From positions 3,991 through 67,990 of the forward strand of contig CAZOOS010000001.1 in the NCBI GenBank assembly GCA_964581475.1: a stretch of DNA of 64,000 nucleotides, read 5' to 3'. The stretch is from an uncultured Hyphomicrobium sp. Lineage in GTDB: Bacteria; Pseudomonadota; Alphaproteobacteria; Rhizobiales; Hyphomicrobiaceae. Made by a program: the position numbers and the translations under genes. Below the pieces are notes generated by a model. It was not told the origin of the DNA. It made no database searches and was given only the letters and a program-made list of their open reading frames with translations. Shown here piece after piece: positions 42,075 to 57,807 of the stretch; position 1 is the stretch's first letter, and every line of letters starts with the position of its first letter.

Positions 42075-42197
42075 TTAGCGGCCGCCGTAGGTGTTGCCGC
42101 CGAAGGTGCCGTGCACCGACAGCGAGCTGTCGGCATAGGCGGGCGCGGCTGCAATCGCGGAGATGCTGAGCAGGGCGGCGAGGATCAAGGTCTTCAT
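42075..42197 (-). CDS. Tiny secreted peptide (40 aa): MKTLILAALLSISAIAAAPAYA-DSSLSVHGTFGGNTYGGR
   Basis: TAGGAG RBS, Sec signal with AYA cleavage site, own terminator and operator. Below the ORF-track cutoff. Confidence 0.8.
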   Translation of the reverse strand: MKTLILAALLSISAIAAAPAYADSSLSVHGTFGGNTYGGR

Positions 42198-42295
42198 CTG
42201 AGTTCTCCTAGGGGTTGCGGTTTCAAGACAAGTTGCGGACTGGCTGACAGCGCCAGCGCTTCCGTGGACGGTTATGCCAATCCGCCGTCTCGATC

Positions 42296-42414
42296 TGAAA
42301 TGCCGAGTTCCTTCGGAATCGATGCTCGGGGGCTATGAAACGCTTTGCGGCCGTTGGCGAATTCGGCCGGGTAATAGCCAACGGCTATCGAGACGGGAGT
42401 CGATCCGCATTTCT
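42296..42414. promoter_or_regulatory. Divergent LysR operators (peptide gene / DM13 gene)
   Basis: TGAAATGCCG...ATGCTCGGGGGCTAT (42322-42336) and ATAGCCAACGGCTAT (42374-42388)...CCGCATTTCT. Confidence 0.7.
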
Positions 42415-42501
42415 GGCGAGGAGGAGATCTCGCTATACTCGGAACCTGAGGGCGCCACTAGCTGTCGCTGCCTGCCGCACTCCGATTAAAGAGGACGCTC
42501 C

Positions 42502-42972
42502 ATGCTCCGCTTGCTTCTCCTGCTCGCTACGCACGGCGCCATGCTGGGCCTCGGGTTCCTGCTTGGTATCTATTTGCTGCCGATCCTCACTGCGCCCGCA
42601 GGGCCCGACCAGGCCGTGCTGCAGGCGACAGAGGCCACCGCCCTCTTCAAGGGTCGCTTTGAACGCAATCTCAAGGGCAGCGACTTCGTGCATTGGGGCG
42701 AAGGAGAGCTGCGCGTGTCGCCCGACACGATCGCCCACCAGGGGCGCCTCGCGCCGGGCCCCGACTACAAGCTCTACCTTGCGTCGGAGTTCGTCGACAC
42801 CAAGGAAGCCTTTTTGAAGATCAAGGGGCAGTCCAAGCGCATCGGCGACGTGAAGACGTTCGATGGTTTCCTGCTCGATGTGCCCCCCGGCGTCGACGTC
42901 GCCGCCTACACGACGGCGGTCGTATGGTGCGAGGCATTCAGCCAATTCATCAGCGCCGCGAAGTATCGCTGA
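42502..42972 (+). CDS. DM13 domain membrane-anchored protein
   Basis: N-terminal TM; HWGEG, APGPDYKLYL, VVWCEAFSQFISAA. Confidence 0.85.
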   Translation: MLRLLLLLATHGAMLGLGFLLGIYLLPILTAPAGPDQAVLQATEATALFKGRFERNLKGSDFVHWGEGELRVSPDTIAHQGRLAPGPDYKLYLASEFVDTKEAFLKIKGQSKRIGDVKTFDGFLLDVPPGVDVAAYTTAVVWCEAFSQFISAAKYR

Positions 42973-43009
42973 CACATGCGCGCAGTTGATGCTGCGGCCG
43001 TTGCGGAGA

Positions 43010-43771
43010 TCAACCGCCGTAGCGCTCGGTTCGGACGATGCCGACCGGGACGCCGGCGTCGACCGCACCATCGGCAGCGGCATTCACGAAGGCGTTCGAG
43101 CCGCAGATGAAGACGTGCCGCGGCGCCTCCGGCAACCGCGCGAGCACCTTGCGCATCATCGCGCCGTCGACGCGGCGGCTGTAATCGCCGTCGCGCATCG
43201 AAGCCCCGCGCGTCAGTGCAAAGACAACGGAAAATCCGTTGTGCTGGTGGTCAAGTTCCATGAGCTCGTCGCGGTAAAGGATATCGTCCCAACTGCGTGC
43301 CGATAGCAGCAACATTGCCGGCACGTCGGATTTCGACGCGCGGCGATCGCGAACCATCGACATCAGCGGCACGAGTCCGGAGCCACCGCCCACCAGCAGG
43401 AGCGGGCCACCGTCGCTTGGGGTCCATACGAAATAGCCGCCCAGCGGACCGCGCAGCTCGATCTCGTCGCCGACCGCGACCACCTCGTGAAAGAACGGCG
43501 AGACCTCGCCGTTGTCCAACAGGTCGATGGCAAGCTCGATGGTGCCGCTTTCTCCGGGCGCCGATGCGAGCGAATAACTCCGCATCGCCCGATATCCGTC
43601 GGGTGCCGTCAGGCGGAGATCGACGTGCTGGCCGGCTAGAAAGTCGAACGGCTTGGACAACGCGAGAATAAAGCTCTTGATGCGTGGCGTGCGCTGGATG
43701 ATCTCCACGACTTTGGCATTTTGCCACTTGGTATCAGGGGGAGCGCCCGATCCCTCGTTAGTCGTTTTCAT
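43010..43771 (-). CDS. FAD/NAD(P)-binding ferredoxin-reductase-like oxidoreductase
   Basis: AGQHV, RSYSLAS, GEVS, RGPLG, GGGSGLVP, FICGS. Confidence 0.9.
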   Translation of the reverse strand: MKTTNEGSGAPPDTKWQNAKVVEIIQRTPRIKSFILALSKPFDFLAGQHVDLRLTAPDGYRAMRSYSLASAPGESGTIELAIDLLDNGEVSPFFHEVVAVGDEIELRGPLGGYFVWTPSDGGPLLLVGGGSGLVPLMSMVRDRRASKSDVPAMLLLSARSWDDILYRDELMELDHQHNGFSVVFALTRGASMRDGDYSRRVDGAMMRKVLARLPEAPRHVFICGSNAFVNAAADGAVDAGVPVGIVRTERYGG

Positions 43772-44363
43772 ACCGCTGCTCGCGCCATGGATCTCCATAC
43801 ATGTGATAACCGCGCAGTTCCCAGAATCCCGCTTCATCCCGTTCGGTGAATTGCAGGCCATTTACCCATTTGGCGGACTTCCAGAAATATAGATGCGGCA
43901 CGAGCAGCCGCGCGGGCCCGCCATGATCGGGCTCCAGCAGCTCGTTGTTGTAGCGCAGGGCGACCATCGCCCGGCCGGCGACGAGATCCTCAGTCGGGAC
44001 GTTGGTCGAATATCCGTCGACCGAGTGAGCAAGTGTGAAGGCCGTCGGCGGAGTCAGTCCGGCCGCGGTCAGAATGTCGTCGATGAGGACGCCTTCCCAA
44101 AGCGTGTTCAGTTTCGACCAAGTCGTCACACAGTGAATGTCGCGCGTGAACTTGGTTTGCGGCAGTGCGTTGAACTCAGCCCAGCTCCATTTCTTCACCG
44201 GCCTTAGGCCGACCTTCAGAGTGAAGGTCCAATTTTCAAGGGCGACCCTCGGCGTCGGACCGGCCGATAGAACGGGGAAGTCGTCGACGAGATGTTGTCC
44301 CGGCGGAATGCGCCCTTCCCCTTCAGGAGGGCGACCGCGACCGGTGAAACCACGCGTCACCAT
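43758..44363 (-). CDS. Sulfite-oxidase-like molybdopterin oxidoreductase (YuiH-like, no export signal)
   Basis: PPGQ, DIHCVTTWSK, HGGPARL, YFWKSAKW, GFWE.RGYH..GDPW. Confidence 0.9.
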   Translation of the reverse strand: MVTRGFTGRGRPPEGEGRIPPGQHLVDDFPVLSAGPTPRVALENWTFTLKVGLRPVKKWSWAEFNALPQTKFTRDIHCVTTWSKLNTLWEGVLIDDILTAAGLTPPTAFTLAHSVDGYSTNVPTEDLVAGRAMVALRYNNELLEPDHGGPARLLVPHLYFWKSAKWVNGLQFTERDEAGFWELRGYHMYGDPWREQRYEND

Positions 44364-44429
44364 GACTTTGCCCCGGCGATTCTGAATCCGTCAGATAGCG
44401 GCGAGAACGTTACTAAATTTCTCACGTGG

Positions 44430-45683
44430 CTAAACGGGTGCACTTGCTGTGCCTTGCAGGCGTGCCGCGGCCGCATTGAGGTCGAGACAAGTCTGCGCCT
44501 CGACCATCACGGGGCCGGCCTGAGGATCCATCCGCTCCTCCTCGAAAAGCTCGTGCAGGTGGATGCCCTCGATCGGATCGAAGTTGCCTTTCCACGGTGC
44601 TCCGTCGATGGTGCGCAACGTCTTTTCGTAGCCCGCTTGCCAGCGCTTACGGATGCCGGACGGACTGAAGTCAACGTCCTTGGTGTGATCCTCATCGCCG
44701 TGTCCGGGCCATAACAGCCGGACGACGTGCATGCGGGTGAGGCATCCGTAAGCGGTCAGCGCGCGCACCGCCTCGCTGCGGCGGACATCGTCCGGCAGCA
44801 ACCCCGCCAGCTCGCGAATGATGTGGCGGAGACGATGGATCTGCGCCTGGCGCGCGATGTGCGTGGCAACACGGCTCGAGTACTGGATGTCCTTCTGCCG
44901 GTGCAGCACCTCCCAGATGGTTTCCGGTTCCGGGCCTTGCGGGTTCCACATGTGCACGGCGAAGACGAGCGAGTTGACGCGCGGGTTCTCGTCGAAGATC
45001 GCCTCGGCCGGCGTGTTGGAGAGGATGCCCCCGTCCCAGTAGAGTTCGCCATCGATGCGCACGGGGGGAAAAGCGGGCGGCAGCGCTCCGGACGCCAGAA
45101 TGTGCTTGACGCTAAGCTCTTCGTTACGGCTGTCGAAGTAGCGCATGCGGCTGGTGCGCACGTGCGCGGCACCCACGGTCAGGCGCGGCTTGTTGCGAGC
45201 AATGAGCGAGAAATCGACGAGCTCGCCGAGCGTCTGCTCCAGCGGTGCCGTCGAATAGAAGCCGGCGTTATCGGCGCCGAGCCGAACGTGCGGGCCGAGG
45301 AAAGCCAGCGGATTGGGAACGAAGAACCCGGGCAGCCCGGCGGTGACTGTCGTCAGGTATGACGCTGACTGTACGAAGCGGGGCCACGCCGACCACTCGT
45401 GCCAGATCGACTTGTGTGCCATGCGGCGCCAGAACTCACGCAACGCCGGGATGCGGTTCTCGCGTTCGTTGCCGGCGATGAGGACGGCGTTGATCGCGCC
45501 GATCGACGTGCCGATTATCCAGTCGGGCTCGATGCCGGCCTCGTGCAGCGCTTGATAGACTCCGGCTTGGTAGGCGCCAAGCGCGCCGCCGCCCTGCAGC
45601 ACCAAGGCGATGCGTCCGTGGCCGTCCGTGGCGTGCGGCGGCTCGCTGCCGTTGGCGCCGTTGAGGTTCGCTGTGGGACCCAT
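44430..45683 (-). CDS. Patatin-like phospholipase (DUF3734 type)
   Basis: LQGGGALGAYQ, GTSIG, WDGG, KDIQYSSR, KDVDFS. GGAGG RBS. Confidence 0.92.
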   Translation of the reverse strand: MGPTANLNGANGSEPPHATDGHGRIALVLQGGGALGAYQAGVYQALHEAGIEPDWIIGTSIGAINAVLIAGNERENRIPALREFWRRMAHKSIWHEWSAWPRFVQSASYLTTVTAGLPGFFVPNPLAFLGPHVRLGADNAGFYSTAPLEQTLGELVDFSLIARNKPRLTVGAAHVRTSRMRYFDSRNEELSVKHILASGALPPAFPPVRIDGELYWDGGILSNTPAEAIFDENPRVNSLVFAVHMWNPQGPEPETIWEVLHRQKDIQYSSRVATHIARQAQIHRLRHIIRELAGLLPDDVRRSEAVRALTAYGCLTRMHVVRLLWPGHGDEDHTKDVDFSPSGIRKRWQAGYEKTLRTIDGAPWKGNFDPIEGIHLHELFEEERMDPQAGPVMVEAQTCLDLNAAAARLQGTASAPV

Positions 45684-45715
45684 GACATCCTCCGGTATGG
45701 TTGCTCGGCACAAAC

Positions 45716-46216
45716 TCAGGGCTGCTTCGAGGCGACGCTGGAGGTGATGGAAGCAATGACCTCCGACGCCATCGTGAATTGCGCATTGCGGTCGGTGATG
45801 TTGTGCCGGCGGGCGATCCAGCCAAAGTCGGTGTAGACGGCCCACACCTCACCCTTGTCGTCCTGGTTCACGAGCAGCCGCACAGGCCAATCGAGGCCGG
45901 AGTCCGGGTTGGAGGTGAGGAACTGAATACCGAGCGGCGGATTGCCGAAGATCAACAGCTTCGACGGCTTGAGCTTCAACCCGGCGTCGGCGCCGAGCTG
46001 CGCCTGATCGACGACCATAAAGAACTTGATGCCCTTGTCTTCGATGTCAGCGCGCAGGCGGCTGACGGTTTCGTCGACGCCATAGCCGCTCTTGACGCGA
46101 ACGATCCCGTTGTTGCTCTCGGCAGCCGTGGCCGTATCGATGGGAAGCGCGCGCAGTGCAAGCGCAGCTACAACGGCGATGATCCAGATGGTCACGACTT
46201 GGGCGCGGACGGACAT
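45716..46216 (-). CDS. Secreted DUF302 domain protein
   Basis: Signal peptide; LLIFGNP, GLDWPVRLLV. Confidence 0.85.
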   Translation of the reverse strand: MSVRAQVVTIWIIAVVAALALRALPIDTATAAESNNGIVRVKSGYGVDETVSRLRADIEDKGIKFFMVVDQAQLGADAGLKLKPSKLLIFGNPPLGIQFLTSNPDSGLDWPVRLLVNQDDKGEVWAVYTDFGWIARRHNITDRNAQFTMASEVIASITSSVASKQP

Positions 46217-46282: not shown

Positions 46283-46381
46283 CTGAAATAGCGATTGGCT
46301 CAGATGTTCATAGACGCCGACTATCGGCCGATAGCGTTTCATGCCCTGCGGCTATCGAAACCAAACCCAATCGATATTTCA
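46283..46381. promoter_or_regulatory. Divergent LysR operators (DUF302 gene / small secreted protein)
   Basis: TGAAATAGCG...ATAGACGCCGACTAT and ATGCCCTGCGGCTAT...CGATATTTCA, each with 22-bp half-site spacing. Confidence 0.7.
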
Positions 46382-46724: not shown

Positions 46725-46743
46725 AACGGTCGACTTCCAATCA

Positions 46744-46800: not shown

Positions 46801-48432
46801 ATGCCGGTTGTGCAACATGCGCGCGCGCTGCGCGCCACCCTTTTTGCTGCAGCTCTCATCGGCGTGCCGCTGGCGTTTGCAGTCGATGGCATGCAGTCCG
46901 AAGCTGCGCGTGGTGTCATCCTTTCCCATCTGCCATCGCCCGGAAGCGCTAGCTATCTGAGTCTCAAGCGGACGGCGGGTGATCCGTCAGGCGAGCCGCT
47001 GGAAATGACCAGCGCCGAGATGTGGTCAGTGCCTCTGGGTCGGCTCGACGCGTTCAAGCGAGCGGCTGCCGAGCTCGGCGTTGCCGTCATGGAACTCGAC
47101 GACACGTCGAACCGCGCCTTGCTGCCGATGGACCCGGCAGTACCCATGACGCCGAAGCAGAGCGCCATGATGCACGACGCCATGGGTTCGAAAGCGGCGA
47201 TGGGAATGTCAGCGATGACGCTGCCCGATCCCAAGGTGATGGAGTACGAGCTGACCAAGGGCATGCATGCCCCCGACGGCGTTCAGCCCGGTTCCGATCT
47301 GATGCTGTCCCTCGACGCCGCCACGACCATCAAAGTGCGCCGCTCGCGTGTCGAGAAGACCCCCGAAGGGTACGTATGGCACGGCACCGTCGTTGGTAGC
47401 GACGATCAGGTTACGCTGCTGTGGTGGCCCAGTGGCCGGCTGTCCGGCCAGATCACCTATCGCGGGCGCCATTTCCTGGTGAAGAACCTCGGCGGCACGC
47501 TGCACGGTGTCGTCGAGATGTCACCGCGCAAGCTGCCTCCCGAGCATGCACCCATGGACAAGTCGCTGTTCGACAAGATGCAAATGCGCAAGGATCCGCT
47601 GGTCACCAAAGGCGATGCCAGCATGCTGCGCCAGCCACCTGCCGGGGCGGTCGAACGTCCGCGCGAGCCGATCCGCAACTTACAGGACGCGGCCCCGAAG
47701 GCGCAGGCAAAGGAGGGTGCGGAAATTGCCCTCGTTGTCCCGCCGGCGTTGAGCGGGCAATCCCCGCGCGAGCCCGTGACCATCGATCTGCTCGTCGCTT
47801 ACACGCCACAGGCCGCAGCGCACTACACCGACATCAAGCGCGACCTCATCGAGGTCGCCGTCGAGGAAGCCAACCAGTCGTTCCGCAACAGCGGCGTCAA
47901 CGACGTGCAGCTGCATGTCGTCCACGCCTATCAGACGGACTACGCGGAATCCGGCTCGCACTTCGAGCACGTGTTCCGTTTCGCCGACAAGGGCGATGGC
48001 TATATGGAGGAGGTGCACGCCCTGCGCGATCAGCACAAAGCCGATATTGCCGCGCTGATCGTGCACGATCCCAACGGTTGCGGCCTCTCGGCCGCCGTGG
48101 CGCCGCCGGCCGATCGCGCCTTCACGGTCGTGCATCACGAGTGCGCGGCGCTCAGCTATTCACTGGCCCACGAGATCGGACACATCATCGGCGCCCGCCA
48201 CGATCTGGCGCTCGACGACGACCAGAAGCCGTATCCGTACGGACATGGGTTCGTCTCCGGCAAGGACTGGCGCACCATGATGAGCTACGAGGAGAGCTGC
48301 GACGGCTGCATGCGCCTGCCGATTTGGTCCAGCCCGTTGATCAAAGTGCGCGGCGTTGCGGCGGGCGATGCGACGGCCGACAACGCGCGCGTCATCGCGG
48401 AGGGCGCGGCGCGGGTCGCCGGCTTCCGGTGA
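46801..48432 (+). CDS. Secreted metzincin zinc metalloprotease (M12/reprolysin-like)
   Basis: Signal-like N-terminus; IDLLVAYT, HEIGHIIGARHD zinc motif, TMMSY Met-turn. Confidence 0.9.
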   Translation: MPVVQHARALRATLFAAALIGVPLAFAVDGMQSEAARGVILSHLPSPGSASYLSLKRTAGDPSGEPLEMTSAEMWSVPLGRLDAFKRAAAELGVAVMELDDTSNRALLPMDPAVPMTPKQSAMMHDAMGSKAAMGMSAMTLPDPKVMEYELTKGMHAPDGVQPGSDLMLSLDAATTIKVRRSRVEKTPEGYVWHGTVVGSDDQVTLLWWPSGRLSGQITYRGRHFLVKNLGGTLHGVVEMSPRKLPPEHAPMDKSLFDKMQMRKDPLVTKGDASMLRQPPAGAVERPREPIRNLQDAAPKAQAKEGAEIALVVPPALSGQSPREPVTIDLLVAYTPQAAAHYTDIKRDLIEVAVEEANQSFRNSGVNDVQLHVVHAYQTDYAESGSHFEHVFRFADKGDGYMEEVHALRDQHKADIAALIVHDPNGCGLSAAVAPPADRAFTVVHHECAALSYSLAHEIGHIIGARHDLALDDDQKPYPYGHGFVSGKDWRTMMSYEESCDGCMRLPIWSSPLIKVRGVAAGDATADNARVIAEGAARVAGFR

Positions 48433-48441: not shown

Positions 48442-49665
48442 CTAGGTGGCAACCTCGCGCAGACGGAAACTGAGGATCGCGGCGACGCCCAGGGCGACTC
48501 CAATGCCGGCGACGGTTGCCGGCCAGCCCAGCCGGTCGAAGACTTGCCCGAGCACCGCCGTGCCGACCAGGCCGCCGATGAAGTAGCTGGCGAGATACAT
48601 TCCGCTGGCGGCGCTGCGGTCGCGCTGCGCCGCGTGACTGACGAAGCCCGTAGCCAGCGCCTGCGCGAAGAACGTCCCCACGGCCACAAGCACCATGCCC
48701 GATAGCACCAGCGACAGCCGCGGCGATAGCAACAGCGGCAACCCCAGGGCAGCCGCAGCCAGGCCGCCGAGCAGCGCGTTGCGGGTCCCGAAGCTGCCTG
48801 CCACCGCGCCGGCGAGCGGGGTCGTCAGGATCGACGGCAGGAACACGAAGTAAATGATGCCGAGTTCCATCATGCCGACCGACAGCGGCGGCGCGACAAG
48901 AACGAAGTTGACGAACGTGAAGGTGCCGATGAAGGCGAACAGGATGCAGAAGCCGATACCGAAACCGGCGCGCAGCGAAGGATGCCTCAGGTGCGCGAGC
49001 CAACCCTGCATCGCGTCTTCCACCGGCATTCCGCTCGGCGTGGGAGGCCGTTGTACCGGAATTGCCATGTAGGCAAGGCCCGCACCGGCGAGATTGAGCG
49101 CGGCAAACGTATAGAACGCACCGGCAAGCCCGAAGTGGTCCGTGACGCCGGTGGCGATCAACCGGCCAATGAGGTTGCTCGCCACGTTGCCGGTGATATA
49201 CGCGGCAAACGCGCTGGCGGTTTGCTTGGCGCTGTAGTGCTCGCCGAGATGGGCGAGCGTCAAACTGAAGGCCGTCGCCATGCACAGCCCCTGGACGACC
49301 CGCAGTGTCGCGAAAACAGCGAGGTTTGGTGCCAGCGCCAGCAGGGCTGTCGGGATCGTGAGCAAGGCGAGGCTCAGCACGATTCCGGCGCGACGATCGA
49401 TGTGTCGGCTGAAGAGCGCGACCGAGAGCCCGGCGGCGGCCATGCCGAATGTGCAGGCATTGACGGCAAGCCCCATTGCCGCCGGCGACACGCCATAACG
49501 CGCAACGAGCGTCGGCAGGAGCGCCTGCGCGGCGAATAGATCGACGACCGTCAGGAAGGCCATCGTCGCAATCACGACAAAACGCACCGTGCCGTCGATG
49601 ACGCGTTGCTGTTTGCCCTCGTCTACGGCGACCGGGCTGGCAATCGAGGTCATGTTCCCACTCAT
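48442..49665 (-). CDS. MFS transporter (YnfM-like)
   Basis: About 12 TM segments; QALLP, LRVVQGL, YITGN..GR, ASGMYLASY. Confidence 0.9.
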   Translation of the reverse strand: MSGNMTSIASPVAVDEGKQQRVIDGTVRFVVIATMAFLTVVDLFAAQALLPTLVARYGVSPAAMGLAVNACTFGMAAAGLSVALFSRHIDRRAGIVLSLALLTIPTALLALAPNLAVFATLRVVQGLCMATAFSLTLAHLGEHYSAKQTASAFAAYITGNVASNLIGRLIATGVTDHFGLAGAFYTFAALNLAGAGLAYMAIPVQRPPTPSGMPVEDAMQGWLAHLRHPSLRAGFGIGFCILFAFIGTFTFVNFVLVAPPLSVGMMELGIIYFVFLPSILTTPLAGAVAGSFGTRNALLGGLAAAALGLPLLLSPRLSLVLSGMVLVAVGTFFAQALATGFVSHAAQRDRSAASGMYLASYFIGGLVGTAVLGQVFDRLGWPATVAGIGVALGVAAILSFRLREVAT

Positions 49666-49752
49666 GCGCTGATGCCGCTGCGAGGCGAGACGCACTTCCA
49701 CTACCGAGGGGTGGCGGCAAGGAAGCGACGTCCCGCTCCGCGGGCGGCCGGC

Positions 49753-50220
49753 TCACATGCCGTGCTGCTCAGGGTCCTGGGCGATGTCGGCCGAGATCAG
49801 CACCACCGGCTTTTTGCTGGTGTTTTTCCACCAGTGCGACAGGCCGCCCTGCTCGACCGACAGTTCGCCGGTCTTGTGCACGATCGGTACCTGGCAGTGG
49901 CTCGAGTACTCGGTGATGCTTCCCGACACGACGTAGATGAGCGCGGGCCGCTCGCCGTGGCTGTGCCAGGCGACCTCGCCGCCGGGCTTGATGTCGAGGC
50001 GGCGCATGCGCAGGTGATGCCCGGCGACGGCGATCTTCTCCTTGGAGAGGTCGATCTGGCCGAGCAGCTTTTCCGACACGTCCTTGTGAGCCGTGGCACC
50101 GGCCTTTTGGCCGTCGGTAGTTTCCTTGCCGGCGGGGCAGGTGCCGGCAAAGGCGGGCGCGGAGATGGAAAGTGTGCCTGCAACGAGCGCGGCGAGAAGA
50201 CTGAGTTTGATCCGGGTCAT
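49753..50220 (-). CDS. Secreted cupin-domain protein
   Basis: Signal peptide; PGGEVAWHSHGERP..YVVSG, E....HWWKN. Confidence 0.88.
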   Translation of the reverse strand: MTRIKLSLLAALVAGTLSISAPAFAGTCPAGKETTDGQKAGATAHKDVSEKLLGQIDLSKEKIAVAGHHLRMRRLDIKPGGEVAWHSHGERPALIYVVSGSITEYSSHCQVPIVHKTGELSVEQGGLSHWWKNTSKKPVVLISADIAQDPEQHGM

Positions 50221-50302: not shown

Positions 50303-50346
50303 TTTGAAATGCCGATTGGCCACCGTATCGATAGCTCTTGGCTATG
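50303..50346 (-). promoter_or_regulatory. LysR operator upstream of cupin-MFS
   Basis: TTTGAAATGCCGATTGGCCACCGTATCGATAGCTCTTGGCTATG. Confidence 0.75.
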
Positions 50347-50406: not shown

Positions 50407-51255
50407 CTACTGTGCCGTCCAGCCGCCTTCGACCGGTATCGCGGCGCCGGTGATCGATCGTGCGGAGTGCGAGCACAAGAACACCGCCAGGGCGCCGATC
50501 TCCTCCGTGGTGACGAACTGGCGAGTTGGCTGCGCGTGCAGCAGCACGTCCCGGACGACCTGTTCCTCCGTCAGCCCGCGCGCCTTTGCCGTTTCGGGAA
50601 TCTGCTTCTCGACAAGCGGAGTCAGTACGTAGCCGGGACATATGGCGTTGACCGTGATGCCGTGCTCGGCCGTCTCCAGAGCCACGGTTTTCGTCAGGCC
50701 GAGGATGCCGTGTTTGGCCGAAACGTAGGCGGATTTGAACGGGGAGGCGACGAGCGCATGCGCCGAGGCGACGTTAATGATGCGCCCGAAGCGGCGCGCC
50801 TTCATCCCGGCAACAGCGGCACGGATCGCATGGAAGGCAGCCGACAGATCGATGGCCACAATGGCGTTCCACTTCTCGATGGGGAACGTCTCTATGGCCT
50901 CCACATGTTGGATGCCTGCGTTGTTAACGAGTACGTCGACCGCGCCGAAGGTCTCGGTGGTTTCGTCAACCATGCGGGCTATGTCATCCGGTCGCGACAT
51001 GTCAGCGGCGGAGTAAGCCGTTCTTACGCCATAGGTTTCCGCCAAGTCGGTGACGGTGCGATCAATCTCGCGCCGATCGCCAAAGCCATTCAGCAGGACG
51101 TTCATGCCGCACGCCGCGAACGCGCGCGCAACGCCGAGCCCGATGCCGCTGGTCGATCCGGTGACGATGGCCGACCTGCCCAACAAATCGGCAAATCCGT
51201 AAGGATCCGCGGTCGGCATACTTTTCGCAGGCTTGTCCAGCATTTGCGTCTCCAT
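50407..51255 (-). CDS. bdhA: D-3-hydroxybutyrate dehydrogenase
   Basis: TGSTSGIG, NNAGIQH, SAHALVASPFKSAYVSAKHG, CPGYVLTPLV, GGWTAQ. Confidence 0.92.
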   Translation of the reverse strand: METQMLDKPAKSMPTADPYGFADLLGRSAIVTGSTSGIGLGVARAFAACGMNVLLNGFGDRREIDRTVTDLAETYGVRTAYSAADMSRPDDIARMVDETTETFGAVDVLVNNAGIQHVEAIETFPIEKWNAIVAIDLSAAFHAIRAAVAGMKARRFGRIINVASAHALVASPFKSAYVSAKHGILGLTKTVALETAEHGITVNAICPGYVLTPLVEKQIPETAKARGLTEEQVVRDVLLHAQPTRQFVTTEEIGALAVFLCSHSARSITGAAIPVEGGWTAQ

Positions 51256-51400
51256 CGATCCTTGTCCTGAATTAAAGGAGACCCGGGGCGTGCACGCGAG
51301 GGACGGTAGCGGCCCCGGGTCCAGGCGACTGACGGCGGAGGGGGGCGACCGTCAGCGGGGAACCAGTTTCGACAGCGACGCTATGCGTAAGAAGTTGTAA

Positions 51401-51444
51401 GTTGAAATGCCGTATGGGTCCGGAATTGATAGCAAGCGGCTATG
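51401..51444. promoter_or_regulatory. LysR operator between bdhA and the divergent lysR (probable autoregulatory site)
   Basis: GTTGAAATGCCGTATGGGTCCGGAATTGATAGCAAGCGGCTATG. Confidence 0.78.
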
Positions 51445-51508: not shown

Positions 51509-52405
51509 ATGGAAATGCACCAGGTCCGGTACTTCCTCGCTGTAGCGCGCCTGCTGAACTTCACTCGCGCCGCCGAGGAGTGTCACGTCGCGCAGCCGTC
51601 GCTCACGCGAGCCATCAAGCAATTGGAAGAAGAATTGGGCGGAGAACTTTTCCGCCGCGAGCGCAACCTCACGCACCTGTCCGAGCTCGGCAATCGCATG
51701 CTGCCCCTGATGCAGCAATGCTTCGACAGCGCACAGGCCGCCAAACAGGTGGCGACCTCGATCAAGAAGGGCGCGCTGGCACCGCTGTCGATCGCGCTGC
51801 CGTTCACCATCAACATCGAGATCGTGCTGCCGTTCCTGAAGGAGCTGGTGCGCGCGATGCCGGGCCTCAATCTCAAATTCGTGCGCGGCAGCAGCATGGA
51901 AGTGAGCGAGCACCTGAAGAAGGGGAGCGCCGATCTCGCGGTGGCGCCGAGACTTCCCGAAAGCTGGGATCGTCTCGAGTCCTGGCCCTTGTTCACCGAA
52001 GCCTACCGGCTCGTCACCGCGAAGGCGCATCCGTTTGCCAAACATGGATCCGCCACGGTCGAGGCGCTGAAGAAGGAACGGATGATCTGCCGCCCCTATT
52101 GCGAGGATTTCGAACGCGGAATTAGCTTCTTCAACGCATCCGGCGTTGAAGTTCCAACCGCCCACAACGCGGGCTCGGATGCAGACTTCGTGGCGCTGCT
52201 GGCAGCCGAGCTCGGGGTCGGATTCGCGCCCGAGAGCTGCCTGACGTCGCCCGACCTCGCGCTGATCGAGGTTGAAGGATTTGAGATGGACAGGACAGTG
52301 TTCGCCTACGCCGTGGCCGGGCGCCAGCGCTCAGCGGCAGCCAGCACGTTGATCAAGATGATGCGCGCGGCCGACTGGGGGCGCCAAGAAGGCCAAGCCG
52401 CTTGA
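51509..52405 (+). CDS. LysR-family transcriptional regulator
   Basis: QVRYFLAVA..LNFTRAAEECHVAQPSLTRAIKQLEEELG HTH; 298 aa. Confidence 0.95.
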   Translation: MEMHQVRYFLAVARLLNFTRAAEECHVAQPSLTRAIKQLEEELGGELFRRERNLTHLSELGNRMLPLMQQCFDSAQAAKQVATSIKKGALAPLSIALPFTINIEIVLPFLKELVRAMPGLNLKFVRGSSMEVSEHLKKGSADLAVAPRLPESWDRLESWPLFTEAYRLVTAKAHPFAKHGSATVEALKKERMICRPYCEDFERGISFFNASGVEVPTAHNAGSDADFVALLAAELGVGFAPESCLTSPDLALIEVEGFEMDRTVFAYAVAGRQRSAAASTLIKMMRAADWGRQEGQAA

Positions 52406-52406
52406 T

Positions 52407-53117
52407 TCATGCGCGCGCCGCCGAAACCGCGTCGAGGATGGCCTCGACGTCCATGCGCTTGCGATAGTCGGGATCGATGTGGCGCGCCTTGACGAGCCCG
52501 TCGCTACCCACGACGAACGTCGCCGGAATCGGCAGCGTCCAATTGTCGTTGGCATTGTAAGGCGTGATGTTCCAACCGGCAAACTTCATGACCTGCTTCT
52601 TCTCGTCGCCGACGTAGAAGGCCAAGTTCAGCATCAGCGCGTAGCCGTTGTCCATGTCCGACAGCACCGGATAGCGCGCGCCCACCGCCGACCGCAGCTC
52701 TTCGTTAAAGCGCTCGATCTCTGGCGTGATGACGACCAGTTCCGCCCCGCGCGCCAGCACGGAATCATGGATGCGGGTGAGCGCGTCGGCGGTAATGCGA
52801 CAATACGGACACCAGTGGCCGCGATGGAAGGCGACCACCACAGGACCTCGCTCCACGAGATCGGCAAGGCTCACCAATTTTCCATTCTGATCGGGCAGCA
52901 TGAAGTCGGGCATCGGCTCGCCGGGGCCCGGTGCGTTTTCGCCGGCGCCGGACGCCTTCAGCCGGGCGATCATGCGCTCGACGATATCGGCAAAGTCGGA
53001 ATTGAGTGCGCGCACTTCATCGGCAAACGCTTGCAGCCGCGCGGCCAGCGGCGCATCGAGGTTGCGACAGCGCTCGGTCGTCTCCTCGAGAATTGCGGCT
53101 ATCGATGGTTCGGCCAT
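52407..53117 (-). CDS. AhpC/TSA peroxiredoxin-like protein 1 (alternative start 53186)
   Basis: PDFMLPD, FHRGHWCPYC, LSDMDNGYA, LPIPATFVV, DPDYRKR. Confidence 0.88.
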   Translation of the reverse strand: MAEPSIAAILEETTERCRNLDAPLAARLQAFADEVRALNSDFADIVERMIARLKASGAGENAPGPGEPMPDFMLPDQNGKLVSLADLVERGPVVVAFHRGHWCPYCRITADALTRIHDSVLARGAELVVITPEIERFNEELRSAVGARYPVLSDMDNGYALMLNLAFYVGDEKKQVMKFAGWNITPYNANDNWTLPIPATFVVGSDGLVKARHIDPDYRKRMDVEAILDAVSAARA

Positions 53118-53199: not shown

Positions 53200-53907
53200 T
53201 CACGCGTGTTCCTTCAAGGAACCTATCGCAAGCAGAATATCCTCGATATCCATGCGTGTACGAAAATCCGGGTCGACCTTGCGGGCGACGACGCGCCCTT
53301 TGCCGTCGAGCACAAACGTTGCCGGTATTGGGACGAACCAGGCACCATTGCCCTGATAGCGCTCGATATCGAGGCCGAACTGCTGATAGAGCGCGCGCAC
53401 TTCGTCACCAAGCCACATGACGATGCCCAGAGCCAAGGCGTACCCGTTGTCGATGTCGGACAGCACGGTGACCGTCTCGTCCGTAAGCGAGCAGACCTTG
53501 CGCGTGTATTCGCCGCGCTCCGGCATGATCGAGACGACCTGAACGCCGTGCGCGGCGAGTTCGGCGTGGGCGCGTGCAAAGGCGAGAAGCTCAAGCTCAC
53601 AGTACTCGCACCAATGGCCGCGATTGAAGCTGACGACCACTGGTCCATTGGCCAGCAAGCTATCCAGATCGCGAAGATGGCCGGTGTGTTCGGGAAGCAA
53701 GAACGGCGGCAGGATATCACCTACGGCGGGAGCGGTGATGCCGGCGGCGGCATTCTTGAGTTGCGTGATGAGATGCTGATAGGCGGCGGCGAACGGGCGG
53801 CCGTGTTGTTCGACAGCGGCTGTGAACAGCGCCAGGCGCTCGTTCAAGGGCGCCTCCGCCGCGCAGATCTTCTTGAACGCTTGCTCGAGCGGGCTCGTCT
53901 CGGTCAT
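53200..53907 (-). CDS. AhpC/TSA peroxiredoxin-like protein 2
   Basis: FNRGHWCEYC, LSDIDNGYA, VPIPATFVL, DPDFRTR. AGGAGG RBS. Confidence 0.88.
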   Translation of the reverse strand: MTETSPLEQAFKKICAAEAPLNERLALFTAAVEQHGRPFAAAYQHLITQLKNAAAGITAPAVGDILPPFLLPEHTGHLRDLDSLLANGPVVVSFNRGHWCEYCELELLAFARAHAELAAHGVQVVSIMPERGEYTRKVCSLTDETVTVLSDIDNGYALALGIVMWLGDEVRALYQQFGLDIERYQGNGAWFVPIPATFVLDGKGRVVARKVDPDFRTRMDIEDILLAIGSLKEHA

Positions 53908-53968
53908 CGCGCGACCCTCCTGGGAGGAGCTGCGGCATTCGGAATATTTTTTAGTGTGCTTCGGTAGT

Positions 53969-54691
53969 TCAGCCATGCCTTGCCGTACTATGAGCCTCCG
54001 CGCGACGCAACGCGCTCAAGATTTCATCGACCTCCATTCGTAAACGGAAGTCCGGATCGACGTGCCGGGAGACGACAAGCCCATCAGCGGCAACCACAAA
54101 TGTCGCCGGTAATGGAACGAACCAGCCGTCGTTGCCGTGGATCTGGTCGAGGTGGACGCCGCGCCCCTTCATCAGTTCCTTCAGGCGATCGCCGAGCCAG
54201 AGGACGAGGCCGAGTGAAAGTGCATAGCCGTTGTCGATATCGGTCAGGATCAGCAGCTTGCCCTCGGTGTCGGCGTCAAGCTGGCCGAGGAATCCTTGCC
54301 GGTCAGGCAATATCGACACCACGCGTCCACCGTGCGCGGCGATCTCCTCGTGATAGGCGGCGACGGTCCGCAGCTCGATCTTGCAGAACGGGCACCAATG
54401 CCCGCGGTTGAAGCTGATCACCACCGGTCCAGCAACCAACATCTCATCAAGGCGAATAAGTTCGCCTGAACGCGACGGCAGCGCGAATTGCGGCATGGGT
54501 TCGCCGACATTCGGTGCACCCGCGCCGATGCCGCCGTCGATGAGGCGCGCGACAAGCGTGTCATATGCTTCGGCGAAAGGAAAATTGAGCTCCTGCAACT
54601 TCTCCGAGTAAGCGGCGAGCTTGCGGCTAAGGGGGCCATCCATCACGCAGATGTCTGCGAATGCTTGTTGGAGCGTGTTGGGAGCTGTCAC
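53969..54691 (-). CDS. AhpC/TSA peroxiredoxin-like protein 3
   Basis: FNRGHWCPFC, LTDIDNGYA, VPLPATFVV, DPDFRLR. Confidence 0.88.
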   Translation of the reverse strand: MTAPNTLQQAFADICVMDGPLSRKLAAYSEKLQELNFPFAEAYDTLVARLIDGGIGAGAPNVGEPMPQFALPSRSGELIRLDEMLVAGPVVISFNRGHWCPFCKIELRTVAAYHEEIAAHGGRVVSILPDRQGFLGQLDADTEGKLLILTDIDNGYALSLGLVLWLGDRLKELMKGRGVHLDQIHGNDGWFVPLPATFVVAADGLVVSRHVDPDFRLRMEVDEILSALRRAEAHSTARHG

Positions 54692-54799
54692 CGGGCCGTA
54701 CCAATTCTGTTGTTGTTGCTTACGCCGAGCGCCGATGATGTTAGCGCGGTGCGATGCACGAAGCGATACAGCCTCTCTTTAGATCGTGAACGAGATGAT

Positions 54800-54831
54800 C
54801 TGGAAGCCGGGCACGAGGCGCCGGCTTCCAG
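54800..54831. repeat. Inverted repeat (11-bp stem), possible terminator or stabiliser after the peptide gene
   Basis: CTGGAAGCCGG-N10-CCGGCTTCCAG. Confidence 0.5.
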
Positions 54832-54941
54832 TACTTCCGCGCATCAGACAGTTGCCGTGAAGAACACCGGGAGACCAACCATCGGGCTGGTTGTTTCATT
54901 GGCATGTCTGCGCGGATCGCTTCCAGGTTGTGGCAAGCCGA

Positions 54942-55076
54942 TCAGCGGCCGTCCACGAAGCCGCGCACCGTGATGGTGGAGCCGGTGCGGGCCAGCTCAC
55001 GAACGTCCGAGCCGGCATAGGCGGCCGTCGTTGCCAGCACAGTGCCAAGCAGAGAGGTCAGGATGATCGTATTCAT
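54942..55076 (-). CDS. Tiny secreted peptide (44 aa): MNTIILTSLLGTVLATTAAYA-GSDVRELARTGSTITVRGFVDGR
   Basis: GGAG RBS; Sec signal with AYA site; upstream LysR operator. Confidence 0.72.
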   Translation of the reverse strand: MNTIILTSLLGTVLATTAAYAGSDVRELARTGSTITVRGFVDGR

Positions 55077-55184
55077 GGTCTGTCTCCATATCGTTGAGGT
55101 GTGAACTCCCGTGGCGGGAGCGAAGCCGAGGCGGAACGGTCCGTCTCGCGATGTTCGGAAGATGCAGGACCGGCAGCCAATTCG

Positions 55185-55266
55185 GAAATATTGGCTTTCT
55201 CTCAATTCGATAGCCCGATGCTATCGGCGCGCACTTGCATCAATTCCATAGCCAACCGGCATTTCA
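55185..55266. promoter_or_regulatory. Divergent LysR operators (peptide + peroxiredoxins / bufferin operon)
   Basis: GAAATATTGG...ATAGCCCGATGCTAT (55210-55224) and ATCAATTCCATAGCCAACCGGCATTTCA (reverse complement of the TGAAATGCCG consensus). Confidence 0.75.
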
Positions 55267-55348
55267 CGCGAGCACGCCTCAGCGGCACCTTCTCCGTACC
55301 GGCGCGACCGCGCGCCGTATTCCCTCGAACCGATACGGAGATCCACCC

Positions 55349-55642
55349 ATGGCGAATACAAGAACCGTCCTGTTGTCGGCCGTCGCGGCGTTGGCCGGCG
55401 TGACCGCCCTGTCGCAAGCGACGCTTGCAGATGATGCCAGCAAGGAGAAGTGCTACGGCATCAGCGCTGCCGGTAAGAACGACTGCGCGTCGTCCGGCAA
55501 CAACTCCTGCGCCGGCACCTCGAAGGCCGATTTCGACAAGGGCGCGTGGAAGTACGTGCCAGCCGGAACGTGCACCTCCACTACGGTGACGTTGCCTGAC
55601 GGCAGCTCGCGTAACGGCTCGCTGCAGCCCATCAAGTCGTGA
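55349..55642 (+). CDS. bufA: Bufferin precursor (DUF2282, BufA1 type)
   Basis: Signal peptide; EKCYG..AGKNDC...SCAG....D..AW.YVPAGTC four-Cys pattern. Confidence 0.92.
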
Positions 55643-55650
55643 GGCGTGCG

Positions 55651-56532
55651 ATGTCTGCAGCAACCAAGCTCGGACAGCGCATGAACACCCCGATCCCGGC
55701 GCGTGCCGGGGTCGGGCTCAAGCCCGAGCACTATCGCCACGTAATCGACACCTGGCCCGACGTTGGCTGGTTTGAAGTTCACCCTGAAAACTACATGGGC
55801 GCCGGTGGCTGGCCGCATCACGTGTTGGAGCGTGTGCGTGCGCGTTATCCGCTGTCGTTGCACGGCGTCGGGCTGTCGATCGGCGGCGCGGAGCCTCTTA
55901 ATCGCCAGCACGCTGCACGCTTAGCCGAGCTCGTCAAGCGCTACGAGCCGGGTCTCGTCTCCGAGCACCTCGCGTGGTCCACCCACGAAGGCCACTTCCT
56001 CAACGATCTGCTGCCCCTGCCTTACAACGAGGTGACGCTGGCGCACGTCGCACGGCACGTGGATGAGTTGCAGGAGGTGCTTGGGCGCCGCGTGCTGATT
56101 GAGAACCCGTCGACGTACGTGACTTTCTCAACGAGCGACATGTCGGAGGTCGACTTCCTGAGCGAGCTCGTGCGGCGCACCGGCTGTGGGCTGCTGCTCG
56201 ACTGCAACAACGTCTACGTGTGCGCAATCAATCACCACTTCGATCCCGCGGCTTACGTCGATGCTTTTCCCATCGCGCACGCCGGCGAGATTCACCTCGC
56301 CGGGTACGCGGAGATTGCTGACGATGACGGCTCGCCGCTGCTCATTGATGCCCATGACCGCACCGTACGCGACGCGGTGTGGACACTCTATGCGCGCGTC
56401 ATTGCCCGCGCCGGCGCCATACCGACTCTCATCGAATGGGACAACGACGTCCCGACGTGGGGAGAGCTGCATGCCGAGGCGATGAAGGCCGAACGCATCC
56501 TTCAGCTGAAGGAGGCCTCCCGTGCTGCATAA
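55651..56532 (+). CDS. bufB: Multinuclear non-heme iron oxidase (DUF692)
   Basis: GVGLK, EVHPENY, SLHGVGLSIG, VSEHLAW, IENPS, LLLDCNN, EIHLAG, IDAH, LIEWD. Confidence 0.95.
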   Translation: MSAATKLGQRMNTPIPARAGVGLKPEHYRHVIDTWPDVGWFEVHPENYMGAGGWPHHVLERVRARYPLSLHGVGLSIGGAEPLNRQHAARLAELVKRYEPGLVSEHLAWSTHEGHFLNDLLPLPYNEVTLAHVARHVDELQEVLGRRVLIENPSTYVTFSTSDMSEVDFLSELVRRTGCGLLLDCNNVYVCAINHHFDPAAYVDAFPIAHAGEIHLAGYAEIADDDGSPLLIDAHDRTVRDAVWTLYARVIARAGAIPTLIEWDNDVPTWGELHAEAMKAERILQLKEASRAA

Positions 56533-57332
56533 TGTGCGTATCGTCTCCGTGGCCGACCATCAGGATGCCTTCGCGCGTGCACTCCTGTGGCACGCCGAGG
56601 CATTACCGCCCGCCATCGCTGGACCCCGTGCGGGCACCCCGACGAAGCGTTTCGGTGTCTATCGCAACAACGTATTTGCCAGCCTGACAGGCTGCCTCGC
56701 CGCACGCTTTTCCTGTCGTCGCGCGCCTCGTCGGTGAAGAGTTCTTCTCGGCGATGGCACGAGTGTTCGTGGAGCGCCATCCGCCCACATCGCCGGCACT
56801 GTTCGAGTACGGCGACGACTTCCCCTCGTTTCTCACGTTGTTCCCCCCGGCAAAGGCGCTGCCGTATTTGCCCGACGTCGCACGTCTCGAATGGCACATC
56901 GCCACCGCGTACCACGCGGCCGACGCGCAGCCGATCGACGCGACCGCCTTGGGACAGCTGGGCCATGAAGCGCTCGAGGCCGCACTCGTCCTGCATCCCT
57001 CATGCGCGATCGTTGTTTCGCACTATCCCATCTTCAATATTTGGCAGACCAACACCCGGGACGAAGTCGTGCAGCACGTGGACGCATCGGCTGGCGGCGA
57101 GGCTGCGCTGATCGTGCGCCCGCATTTCAACGTCGAAGTCGTTCGGCTCGACACCGCGGTCTACGCTTTCACCGCCGCTCTTGCCGCCGGTCACGCGCTG
57201 GAGCTCGCCGCCGAAATTGCCACAGAGCTCGACAGCTCACTCGATGTCGGAGAAGCCCTGCAGACGCTCTTTTCCAGCGGCGCCATCATTGGCTTGCGGC
57301 CCGCATCACGCGTTCCATCACGACCAACATGA
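56522..57332 (+). pseudogene. bufC: DUF2063 partner protein, interrupted by a +1 frameshift at TTTT 56708-56711
   Basis: RFGVYRNN upstream. Deleting one T restores ARFPVVARLVGEEFFSAMARVF and joins to YGDDFP..LPDVARLEW. Confidence 0.88.
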
Positions 57333-57342
57333 GGCTCATGTC

Positions 57343-57807
57343 ATGCGCGACCTGATTGATGCGGCCCTCGCGGCCTTCAAAAGCATTCCCGACGATCTCA
57401 TTTCGTACATCGCCCGCATCGGCATTGGCACGACGTTCTTCCGCTCAGGGATGTTGAAGCTGGACGGCTGGGCCGATGGCAACACGCTGACGCTGTTTCG
57501 TGAGGAGTATCGCTTGCCGCTGCTGCCGCCCGAGATTGCCGCTTATCTAGCTACGACCGCGGAGCTGACCCTGCCGTTGCTCCTCTTTGCGGGACTGTTC
57601 ACCCGCTTTGCGTCTGCCGGCCTGCTTGTGATGACCCTGGTGATAGAGGTCTTCGTCTACCCCAACGCATTCGACACCCACGGCGTGTGGGCCGTCGCGC
57701 TGTTCTTTCTAATGAAGTACGGCGCCGGTGCCCTCTCCCTCGATAACCTGCTTGCTCATCTGCGGGGCGATAACGGCAGGGCACCCCGCGAATCAGACGG
57801 TACTTAA
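57343..57807 (+). CDS. bufD: DoxX-family membrane protein
   Basis: FFRSG..K, LFREEY, AELTLPLLL..GLFTR, VYP, HGVW, GAGALSLD. Confidence 0.9.
   Translation: MRDLIDAALAAFKSIPDDLISYIARIGIGTTFFRSGMLKLDGWADGNTLTLFREEYRLPLLPPEIAAYLATTAELTLPLLLFAGLFTRFASAGLLVMTLVIEVFVYPNAFDTHGVWAVALFFLMKYGAGALSLDNLLAHLRGDNGRAPRESDGT

Follow-up and report, generated by a model that had tools for sequence, protein, structure and literature searches.

An OxyR-like bipartite operator at eight promoters around a LysR-type regulator gene in an uncultured Hyphomicrobium

Several described systems resemble the one reported here: a lysR gene at position 51509, and eight copies of one operator element, in a stretch of 64,000 nucleotides (nt) of DNA, here called the window, from an uncultured Hyphomicrobium sp. 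(assembly GCA_964581475.1, contig CAZOOS010000001.1, positions 3,991 to 67,990). One of these systems is OxyR, whose box consists of four ATAG-type elements at a spacing of seven bases (PMC3378865). In the Rhizobiales, LsrB is a second cysteine-based redox LysR protein beside OxyR, with a genetic link to the thiol reductase gene trxB (PMC11975290). RclR-RclABC is a small local regulon, one of whose products is a flavoprotein disulfide reductase and another a small protein of the periplasm, and HypT is a LysR-family regulator responsive to hypochlorous acid (PMC7464077). The SigF/NrsF regulons of the ECF16 group of extracytoplasmic function (ECF) sigma factors, namely mrpX-yedYZ of Azospira, bcrXQP of Brucella and buf1/buf2 of Caulobacter, are reactive-chlorine and copper regulons (PMC4436054; PMC8315932; 10.1101/2024.03.18.585515). 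MrpX and YedYZ act in hypochlorite defence (PMC4436054), and DUF692/DUF2063 mutants are sensitive to chlorite in three bacteria (10.1101/072470). The main text of a paper on the MNIO landscape mentions sigma/NrsF genes and nowhere the word LysR (PMC12452194).

The window LysR shares its fold with OxyR, and P. aeruginosa OxyR (4x6g) is among its top sequence and fold matches. A Cys at the peroxidatic position and four ATAG-type elements with 7-nt spacing are further likenesses (PMC3378865). The window LysR differs from OxyR in its identity of only ~25-28%, its separate branch, its lack of a resolving Cys, its coexistence with an OxyR, its operator of a GC-rich dyad and a fixed TTC, and its predicted protein partner. 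The cysteines of LsrB, C144 and C273, are at positions other than that of the window's Cys198 (PMC11975290). With the SigF/NrsF regulons there is overlap in Met-rich secreted proteins, MsrPQ-like proteins, MsrA/B and bufferin; here, however, a LysR site and a sigma70-type -10 take the place of the ECF GTAA-CGAA promoter, and the core in the window adds cupin-MFS (major facilitator superfamily), bdhA-patatin, DUF302 and peroxiredoxin-like (Prx-like) genes. RclR, unlike the window LysR, is of the AraC family and has two Cys, HypT senses via Met oxidation, and the reductase found in relatives of the window locus is of PRK06370 type (362 bits against an RclA cut-off of 740) and absent from the window. 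Partner proteins that set the state of a transcription factor are known from the Orp1/Gpx3-Yap1 and Tpx1-Pap1 relays and from the GcvA-GcvR pair. The two relays are eukaryotic and have true peroxidases, and GcvR lacks the thioredoxin fold; the partner proposed here differs from the relays in having no peroxiredoxin catalytic residues and, in its predicted pose, no Cys-Cys contact. The operator logic described below is ordinary LysR biology. What is new is the Prx-like gene that accompanies lysR, and a complex of the two proteins that structure prediction proposes; the conserved single cysteine and the micro-peptide also lift the system above that ordinary logic.

A sequence-only reading of this DNA had reported eight OxyR-like elements at eight promoters, and all eight were found, at most 2 nt from where it had placed them. 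In the orientation of their target genes, the eight can be lined up gap-free over 40 bp: ATAGC-N5-GCTAT, a stretch of 10 nt, and approximately GCCAATCGGCATTTC. The ~44-bp consensus string given earlier proves loose, with a middle that is variable; its two dyads 22 bp apart stand. The proposal that the ATTTC(A) end points toward the downstream gene at a plausible -35 was borne out: the TTC end, at a likely -35, faces the target in 8/8 sites at a distance of 69-161 nt from its start codon, and a conserved -10 follows. The sites are given below, with scores on a position weight matrix (PWM) rebuilt from 235 sites of relatives (the refined PWM).

42297..42336, minus strand: site 1, faces the gene for a 40-amino-acid (aa) micro-peptide; 41.5
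42374..42413, plus strand: site 2, faces the DM13 gene; 40.4
46285..46324, minus strand: site 3, faces the DUF302-patatin-molybdenum (Mo) enzyme-reductase genes; 43.8
46341..46380, plus strand: site 4, faces the genes of an 87-aa protein and an M12 protease; 50.0
50306..50345, minus strand: site 5, faces cupin-MFS; 52.7
51404..51443, minus strand: site 6, faces bdhA, and has its distal dyad ~65 nt ahead of the start of the divergent lysR
55185..55224, minus strand: site 7, faces the 44-aa micro-peptide gene, then the Prx-like trio; 45.5
55226..55265, plus strand: site 8, faces bufA, back to back with site 7; leave-one-out score 29.4

Site 8 has a degenerate distal dyad and reaches 18.2 on the refined PWM, against 40-53 for the other seven. 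The assembly comprises 3.16 Mb, is 81.5% complete and has a mean GC content of 65%. When each site was left out of the window PWM in turn, the eight scored 25.6-43.6 and the best other position in the assembly 15.2; in each test, only the remaining training sites reached comparable scores. Neither PWM found a further site in this incomplete assembly, and the refined one exceeds 10 at these eight positions only. The window PWM was also run on 1.37 Mb around 79 relatives of the LysR, from Hyphomicrobium, Bradyrhizobium, Methylocella, Methylocapsa, Methyloceanibacter, Pseudolabrys and other Alphaproteobacteria (47-83% identity). It gave 294 matches of at least 16 there, against 2.3 per shuffled set. 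An origin of the sites by chance or as a repeat artefact is rejected on the grounds of the leave-one-out uniqueness and the shuffled controls. The genome and relatives having been scanned as the sequence-only reading proposed, the eight sites turn out to be unique in the one and to recur in 77/79 LysR loci of the other (265 matches of at least 20); two loci, L034 (2.5 kb) and L042, have no site at that threshold. In other genomes of the genus, sites also occur far from the cluster, mostly ahead of a micro-peptide gene, so the description of the island as self-contained is true of this assembly only.

The 240 sites of relatives reveal the promoter anatomy. The first dyad is nearly invariant (A98 T98 A93 G89 ... 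C88 T93 A99 T100). The second, centred 22 bp downstream, is weak save for its ATTTC end, which is kept at 93-100%. The element thus carries a T-N11-A recognition dyad and a second dyad abutting -35, near the divergent gene of its own regulator. About 17 nt after TTCANN there is a YAnnnT hexamer, whose A and T (second and sixth places) are present in 161/240 sites and, with a one-base shift, in 29 more; shuffled controls gave the A..T pair at the fixed distance in a mean of 10.3 and at most 19 of 240. We infer promoters of sigma70 type, in which the -35 is poor and overlaps the activation dyad. The geometry of four ATAG-type elements with 7-nt spacing is exact here, but the third and fourth elements are degenerate, and only 4/8 window sites match the OxyR operator at 12 or more of 16 positions. 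Sites flanking lysR in relatives lie 50-69 nt from it in 49/68 cases, and the position of site 6 with respect to the divergent lysR likely reflects autoregulation.

The bdhA leader (51246-51375, minus strand) is unusually long, at 161 nt, and has two GC-rich hairpins. An RNA element is not claimed there, as the 130-nt leader folds modestly (z -2.1). A MerA-like gene separates the bdhA-facing site from bdhA in L004 and L019. Variant sites adjoin other, more distant LysR genes (L051:6643, L061:6637, L098:8164-8182), one of them before what reads as a phasin-like gene, which suggests paralogous sub-regulons with related motifs. A distant sub-clade (L107, L112, L113), whose recognition helix ends in TKGV, has the variant motif ATAAC...TAT ... 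TCATTTCC, preceding a Mo enzyme-reductase operon or an efflux operon.

Whose sites are they? The genome has nine HTH_1 matches, among them a two-cysteine OxyR on contig C143. In a sample of 301 genomes of the order, the strict motif occurs in 13, OxyR in 249, and a LysR of the window clade (E<=1e-40, seven candidates scored per genome) in 27, which include 9 of the 13 with the strict motif. Across the genus (39 genomes), the motif with one mismatch is found in 19/19 with the lysR and 4/20 without it, and a reversed-pattern control gave 0. Outside the order, in Skermanella mucosa (Rhodospirillales), two strong sites (50.1 and 52.5) separate cupin-MFS-reductase-Prx-like genes from bdhA-patatin, and a LysR of 41% identity adjoins them. 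No site of at least 10 was found in the distant-homologue loci L110 and L114, and none of at least 16 in L106. In the 81.5%-complete assembly katG was not found, so the comparison does not extend to OxyR boxes of this genome. Phylogenetic footprinting of this kind bears out the sequence-only reading in tying the sites to the LysR at 51509; they appear to belong to it, and canonical OxyR is an unlikely owner. Judged by the same comparison, the regulon is conserved in the Hyphomicrobiales and extends to Skermanella.

The regulator itself is encoded as follows:

51509..52405, plus strand: LysR of 298 aa; Cys198 takes the place of the OxyR peroxidatic Cys, a resolving Cys is missing, and R286 and W290 at the C-terminus are clade-specific

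PF00126 (HTH_1) and PF03466 (LysR substrate-binding) both score above cut-off, and the structural model and fold search concur. On the NCBIfam OxyR profile the protein scores 70.5 bits and the C143 OxyR 246, both below a cut-off of 329 that is E. coli-centred. A quick tree of 46 rows, drawn from a subsample of the alignments, places the window LysR and its distant homologues on their own branch (SH-aLRT support 98), apart from alphaproteobacterial OxyR; a sister relation to OxyR is not among its results. The genome's LsrB-like gene, which we take to be the one on contig C54, falls outside this clade. Cys198, in the motif R-x-x-C-E, is kept in 77/79, in 119/119 and in 17/17 further, mostly distant, homologues; Cys71, unlike Cys198, is lost in distant ones. 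Profile-profile alignment (HHalign) puts Cys198 on the OxyR peroxidatic Cys (C199), with a two-residue gap, and aligns the downstream Arg too; no conserved Cys equivalent to the resolving C208 was seen in HHalign or the homologue alignments. In the AlphaFold model (mean predicted local distance difference test score, pLDDT, 88.6) Cys198 lies in a loop ahead of helix 201-210. The effector-domain residues R126, R155 and R262 are invariant, and the recognition helix resembles that of OxyR. The simplest reading of these features is a one-cysteine sensor. As for the size of the clade, 7,778 of 7,999 scored candidates reach E<=1e-50, true members being an upper slice of these.

Convergent with lysR stands the first of three related genes:

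52407..53117, minus strand: Prx-like (AhpC/TSA family) CxxC protein 3 (Prx3), the predicted partner of the LysR effector domain
53200..53907, minus strand: Prx-like CxxC protein 2, by Pfam match
53969..54691, minus strand: Prx-like CxxC protein 1, by Pfam match

A Prx-like gene is found in 76/79 LysR loci, in 55/55 of those of at least 18 kb, and directly convergent with lysR in 59/79; among genomes of the genus, the family occurs in 18/19 with the lysR as opposed to 1/20 without. The fold is that of the AhpC-TSA Pfam family and is BCP/ResA-like, BCP/PrxQ proteins being the top fold matches at 16-22% identity. The hallmark of peroxiredoxins is a PxxxT/SxxC motif together with a catalytic Arg. 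The Prx-like proteins lack both: CxxC is present in 59/59, and Pro stands at the place of the Arg of BCP 2cx3, which gives them the look of thiol-disulfide oxidoreductases rather than peroxidases. The name of peroxiredoxin trio, used in the sequence-only reading, therefore has to be given up for CxxC thioredoxin-fold proteins. Nor does a site stand directly before the trio; site 7 precedes the 44-aa open reading frame (ORF), and the trio follows.

Structure prediction supports binding of the LysR effector domain to Prx3. For LysR 88-292 with Prx3 3-234 the complex score was 0.88 over three runs, the best of three controls reaching 0.24; the mark applied to this score is reached by 116/157 solved complexes and 2/215 mismatched pairs, and is a rough guide only with the alignments used here. 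Contacts agree 100% between the runs, and the partner has a pLDDT of at least 93. The predicted interface consists of LysR residues 112-116, 159 and 276-292, and partner residues 73-83, 134-139, 153-156 and 189. Two of the LysR residues, W159 and R286, are invariant (61/61); in further homologues W290 is kept in 17/17 and R286 in 16/17, and neither is seen in the OxyR consensus. Sequence and fold searches of the PDB returned no similar complex. The literature searched holds no description of the regulator, the operator or the complex, in keeping with the earlier view of the system as undescribed; tables of transcriptome studies might list some of the genes.

The remaining targets and neighbours, between the first micro-peptide gene and the bdhA divergent from lysR, are:

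42502..42972, plus strand: DM13-domain protein, by library scan
43010..43771, minus strand: FAD/NAD(P) ferredoxin-reductase-type oxidoreductase, by library scan
43758..44363, minus strand: sulfite-oxidase-family molybdopterin enzyme, with no signal peptide visible and far below the MsrP cut-off
44430..45686, minus strand: patatin and DUF3734 hydrolase, by library scan
45716..46216, minus strand: DUF302 protein with an N-terminal signal or anchor, by library scan
46801..48432, plus strand: secreted M12 metzincin protease, with a Met-rich pro-region (10 Met in residues 101-160) and a weak Mep72 match
48442..49701, minus strand: MFS transporter, by library scan
49753..50220, minus strand: cupin, secreted, in which His and Cys residues are conserved
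50407..51243, minus strand: bdhA, 3-hydroxybutyrate dehydrogenase, above the TIGR01963 cut-off

The idea that these genes form one system is supported by the 79 loci, across which they travel together as a regulon. The gene order is reshuffled among loci, with the sites still ahead of the same operons. Besides the Prx-like gene (76 of 79 loci), the commonest members are cupin and MFS (53 each), bdhA (51) and patatin (49). Rarer are DUF302 (29), the 87-aa protein (19), the M12 protease (18), a MerA/RclA-like reductase (15) and DoxX (13), and the rarest listed are a 94-aa Met-rich protein (11), bufA (10), Mo enzymes (5), and EgtB and DM13 (2 each). Two distant loci, L107 and L113, likewise have the window's Mo enzyme-reductase pair behind a site. 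In L030 and L037, MsrA and MsrB (above cut-off) and then cytochrome b and MsrP-like genes are found behind sites, as is EgtB-EgtD in L014; PRK06370-type reductases stand behind sites in relatives as well. Fourteen small secreted proteins behind sites, of several unrelated families, contain 97 Met in 926 residues (10.5%, counted after residue 24), against a background of 2.2%. Catalase and AhpCF were not seen among the recurrent targets of the relatives' sites. Homologues on distant plasmids adjoin msrA, msrB, osmC and bufferin genes, mostly with no sites before those genes. The target set of MsrA/B, MsrPQ-like, RclA/MerA-like, EgtBD and Met-rich proteins suggests reactive-chlorine or thiol stress. 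The B. japonicum BjG30 locus (blr7028-7029; PMC4070704) was considered as the same locus and rejected, being a TetR-linked adc-bdhA locus. A cupin, a short-chain dehydrogenase/reductase, a LysR and a peroxiredoxin have been listed as linked to chlorite dismutase (PMC9751292); that link is not counted here.

Three micro-peptide genes had been proposed as targets. Two are such ORFs, and the third is the gene of an 87-aa secreted protein:

42075..42197, minus strand: 40-aa micro-peptide ORF, with a predicted signal peptide, a mature part of ~18 aa and the motif D-x-x-[LF]-[ST]-V-H-G
54942..55076, minus strand: 44-aa micro-peptide ORF of the same family, in which the motif His is Arg here and His in L001/L003
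46461..46724, plus strand: 87-aa secreted protein, with two conserved Cys, a C-terminal D-S-F-S-P-H-G motif and no Pfam family

The family consists of secreted micro-peptides of 33-44 aa with a predicted signal peptide, 14-23 mature residues, V-H-G and a terminal G-R or G-N. Its profile matches 19/19 LysR-positive and 2/20 LysR-negative genomes of the genus, and both exceptions carry sites. A site lies 97-121 nt upstream in 26 of 30 micro-peptide loci (L162-L191), often far from the cluster, although 13 of the 30 built the profile and had been found via their site; of the rest, 13/17 have one. An Atlas search with the 40-aa peptide returned unnamed clusters only, all under 0.9; PF27144, a weak match in the Atlas (17% of one cluster), and PA2433, a guess at what it stands for, led nowhere. 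The motif near the C-terminus of the 87-aa protein resembles that of the micro-peptides. Its gene is ahead of that of the M12 metzincin in 18/19 loci, and the protein might be an inhibitor or substrate of the protease. The proposal that the protease is the partner of the micro-peptide is weakened by L010 and L048, whose loci contain the peptide but not M12. For the micro-peptide itself, a role in metal binding or in signalling is a guess. Remote micro-peptide genes are often followed by the gene of a large secreted protein, which contains Cys and 'ARNAEI' repeats and has an OmpA-like C-terminal domain (L144:1542-2936, L149, L150, L151, L154); its homologue in the window's own genome (C124:4396-5982) has no site or peptide upstream.

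On the far side of sites 7 and 8 lies the bufferin operon, at the edge of the cluster:

55349..55642, plus strand: bufA, a DUF2282 bufferin precursor, by library scan
55651..56532, plus strand: bufB, an MNIO maturase above the NF050167 cut-off
56522..57332, plus strand: bufC (DUF2063), split over two reading frames by a break near 56710
57343..57807, plus strand: bufD (DoxX), by library scan
58136..58225, minus strand: tRNA-Ser(TGA), flanking the cluster

DUF2282, MNIO, DUF2063 and DoxX genes in one operon make this a buf1-type bufferin locus, with a bufC that is not intact. The same frameshift is present in contigs of runs X1-X3 (one study, one of them possibly the source), with no gap there, so the operon may be non-functional here, which matches the weak bufA site. 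The bufferin operon as a target thus stands in that site 8 faces bufA, and is qualified by the weakness of the site and the broken bufC. In five loci (L049, L054, L055, L097, L102) bufA is behind strong sites. A scan confined to the window's proteins around this operon showed neither sigF nor nrsF. L110 (NZ_CP117258.1) combines a distant LysR, a Prx-like gene, a bufferin operon, an ECF sigma gene and DUF1109, with no site detected. Next to the cluster, at ~57878, likeness to a close relative (G135) stops, and lysR has a patchy spread (19/39 genus genomes); tRNA insertion and patchy distribution are the marks of a genomic island. No integrase was found among the 59 window proteins scanned, the 3' end of the tRNA is not duplicated on the contig, and a left boundary was not found. 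From 1282 to 39755 there is a large surface-polysaccharide cluster of 60-63% GC, below the 65% genome mean, with glycosyltransferases, Wzz/Wzc-like proteins, an export protein, an exosortase-CAAX protease fusion and two outer membrane protein barrels. It may share an accessory region that ends at tRNA-Ser.

The reading we favour, with somewhat more trust than doubt, is that the LysR is an activator whose Cys198 senses a thiol-reactive oxidant, and that a bound CxxC protein gates or resets it. Very probably, a LysR tetramer would sit on the strong distal dyad and upon induction engage the weak proximal dyad by -35 as well, activating the sigma70-type promoters. At site 6 it would additionally repress the divergent lysR. 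The inducer would oxidise or form an adduct with Cys198. The best fit, a view to which we incline slightly, would be reactive chlorine species or an oxidant of thiols and methionine akin to them, because sites of relatives drive MsrA/MsrB, MsrPQ-like and Met-rich proteins, an RclA/MerA-like reductase, EgtBD and bufferin. Fairly probably, the CxxC Prx-like protein docks on the C-terminal helix of LysR, as a dedicated co-regulator or a resetting reductase; since its gene is itself a target, this would amount to feedback on LysR. A broader proposal, that a one-cysteine OxyR-like LysR with a CxxC partner is a widespread alphaproteobacterial redox switch over a reactive-chlorine/thiol-stress regulon, made up of sacrificial Met-rich proteins, Msr enzymes, bufferin and, in Hyphomicrobium-like hosts, the micro-peptide, is tentative, and we would sooner doubt than assert it.

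Several observations weigh against this reading. The predicted interface includes neither Cys198 nor the CxxC (C103/C106), so the pose is not one of thiol exchange. A single LysR chain was folded, so the docking surface might be taken up in the tetramer. Conservation of the Prx interface (mean 0.63) is no higher than that of the whole protein (0.64). In a single-sequence alignment to 4x6g, Cys198 lies two residues off C199, and LysR has Tyr where OxyR has His before the Cys. The most constant targets, cupin-MFS and bdhA-patatin, are not recognised as genes of oxidant defence, the Msr, MsrPQ-like and EgtB targets are found in 2-5 loci each of 79, and the Met-rich set of 14 was chosen by eye. 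Related genomes are not independent, and counts across kin carry less weight. Finally, profile search did not find a clade LysR in four of the 13 strict-motif genomes. Among these, G265 is complete, and its one site, an orphan, precedes patatin; G239 retains remnants of a decayed lysR and of Prx; and in G086 the site sits at a contig end. In the stretches covered of G285 (20 contigs, 98% complete), five strong sites occur together with two Prx-like genes (L091, L092, L142, L143). This genome is a real counter-example to ownership by the LysR; its lysR may have been lost, may fall in an assembly gap, or another regulator may have taken over.

The constancy of bdhA and patatin gives rise to a different account, in which LysR owns the sites and senses a small metabolite, 3-hydroxybutyrate or acetoacetate, Cys198 being a pocket residue and the regulon one of polyhydroxybutyrate mobilisation with accessory genes. 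The usual gene divergent from lysR is bdhA, first behind the site in 40 loci, patatin accompanies it in 49/79, and the invariant R126, R155 and R262 could hold a carboxylate. However, distant homologues keep the Prx-like neighbour and Cys198, often without bdhA, and Msr, EgtBD, RclA-like and Met-rich targets fit no catabolic regulon, which leaves this account unlikely.

Met-rich proteins bind Cu(I), and the Met-rich targets can thus be counted toward a soft metal, most likely copper, as the signal at Cys198, with the small secreted proteins, cupin, DUF302 and bufferin as periplasmic sinks. The conserved His of the micro-peptide, the conserved His and Cys of the cupin, and the strong sites before bufA in five loci point the same way, and Caulobacter bufferins are copper-induced and protective (10.1101/2024.03.18.585515). 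But copper efflux ATPases, multicopper oxidases and CusCBA are missing from the recurrent targets, bufA is in 10/79 loci only and bufC is broken here, and a lone Cys makes a thin metal site; we regard a copper signal as distinctly unlikely.

The close link of micro-peptide and LysR in the genus (19/19 against 2/20 genomes, with a site before 26/30 copies), and the D-S-F-S-x-H-G motif of the 87-aa protein ahead of the protease, could also reflect a peptide loop, in which LysR drives a secreted peptide of 14-20 residues that is processed or imported by way of the M12 protease, cupin and MFS and feeds back on LysR. Such a loop is improbable, given that LysR pockets bind small molecules, that Bradyrhizobium, Methylocella and Methylocapsa have Met-rich proteins and not the peptide behind equivalent sites, and that production of the peptide is a prediction from sequence. 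Binding of the sites by the canonical OxyR of contig C143 is the least credible account, in spite of the dyad geometry of OxyR boxes (PMC3378865), the similar recognition helix and the weak OxyR-like matches in G285, as OxyR is far more widespread in the order than the motif, the sites cluster round the clade lysR and are missing from 16/20 genus genomes without it, and the P. aeruginosa OxyR motif is A+T rich (PMC3378865) whereas the window motif is GC-rich inside the dyad; some cross-binding by OxyR may still occur.

Under the LysR reading, these results equip a large LysR clade that has no name with a regulator, its operator and a set of targets; this is testable at once, as the clade occurs in cultured soil bacteria (Bradyrhizobium spp., Methylocella silvestris BL2). 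They tie a secreted cupin, DUF302, Met-rich proteins and a micro-peptide family to one signal, and place bufferin genes under apparent LysR control, the control described so far being SigF. If the complex is not real, this would be an ordinary though undescribed LysR regulon. If it is real, control of a LysR would run through a clade-specific surface bound by a thioredoxin-fold protein, and the literature searched holds no such mode. Were the two-protein switch true, it would be a bacterial counterpart of the partner-coupled redox transcription factors and would give a function to the bacterial 'peroxiredoxin-like family'.

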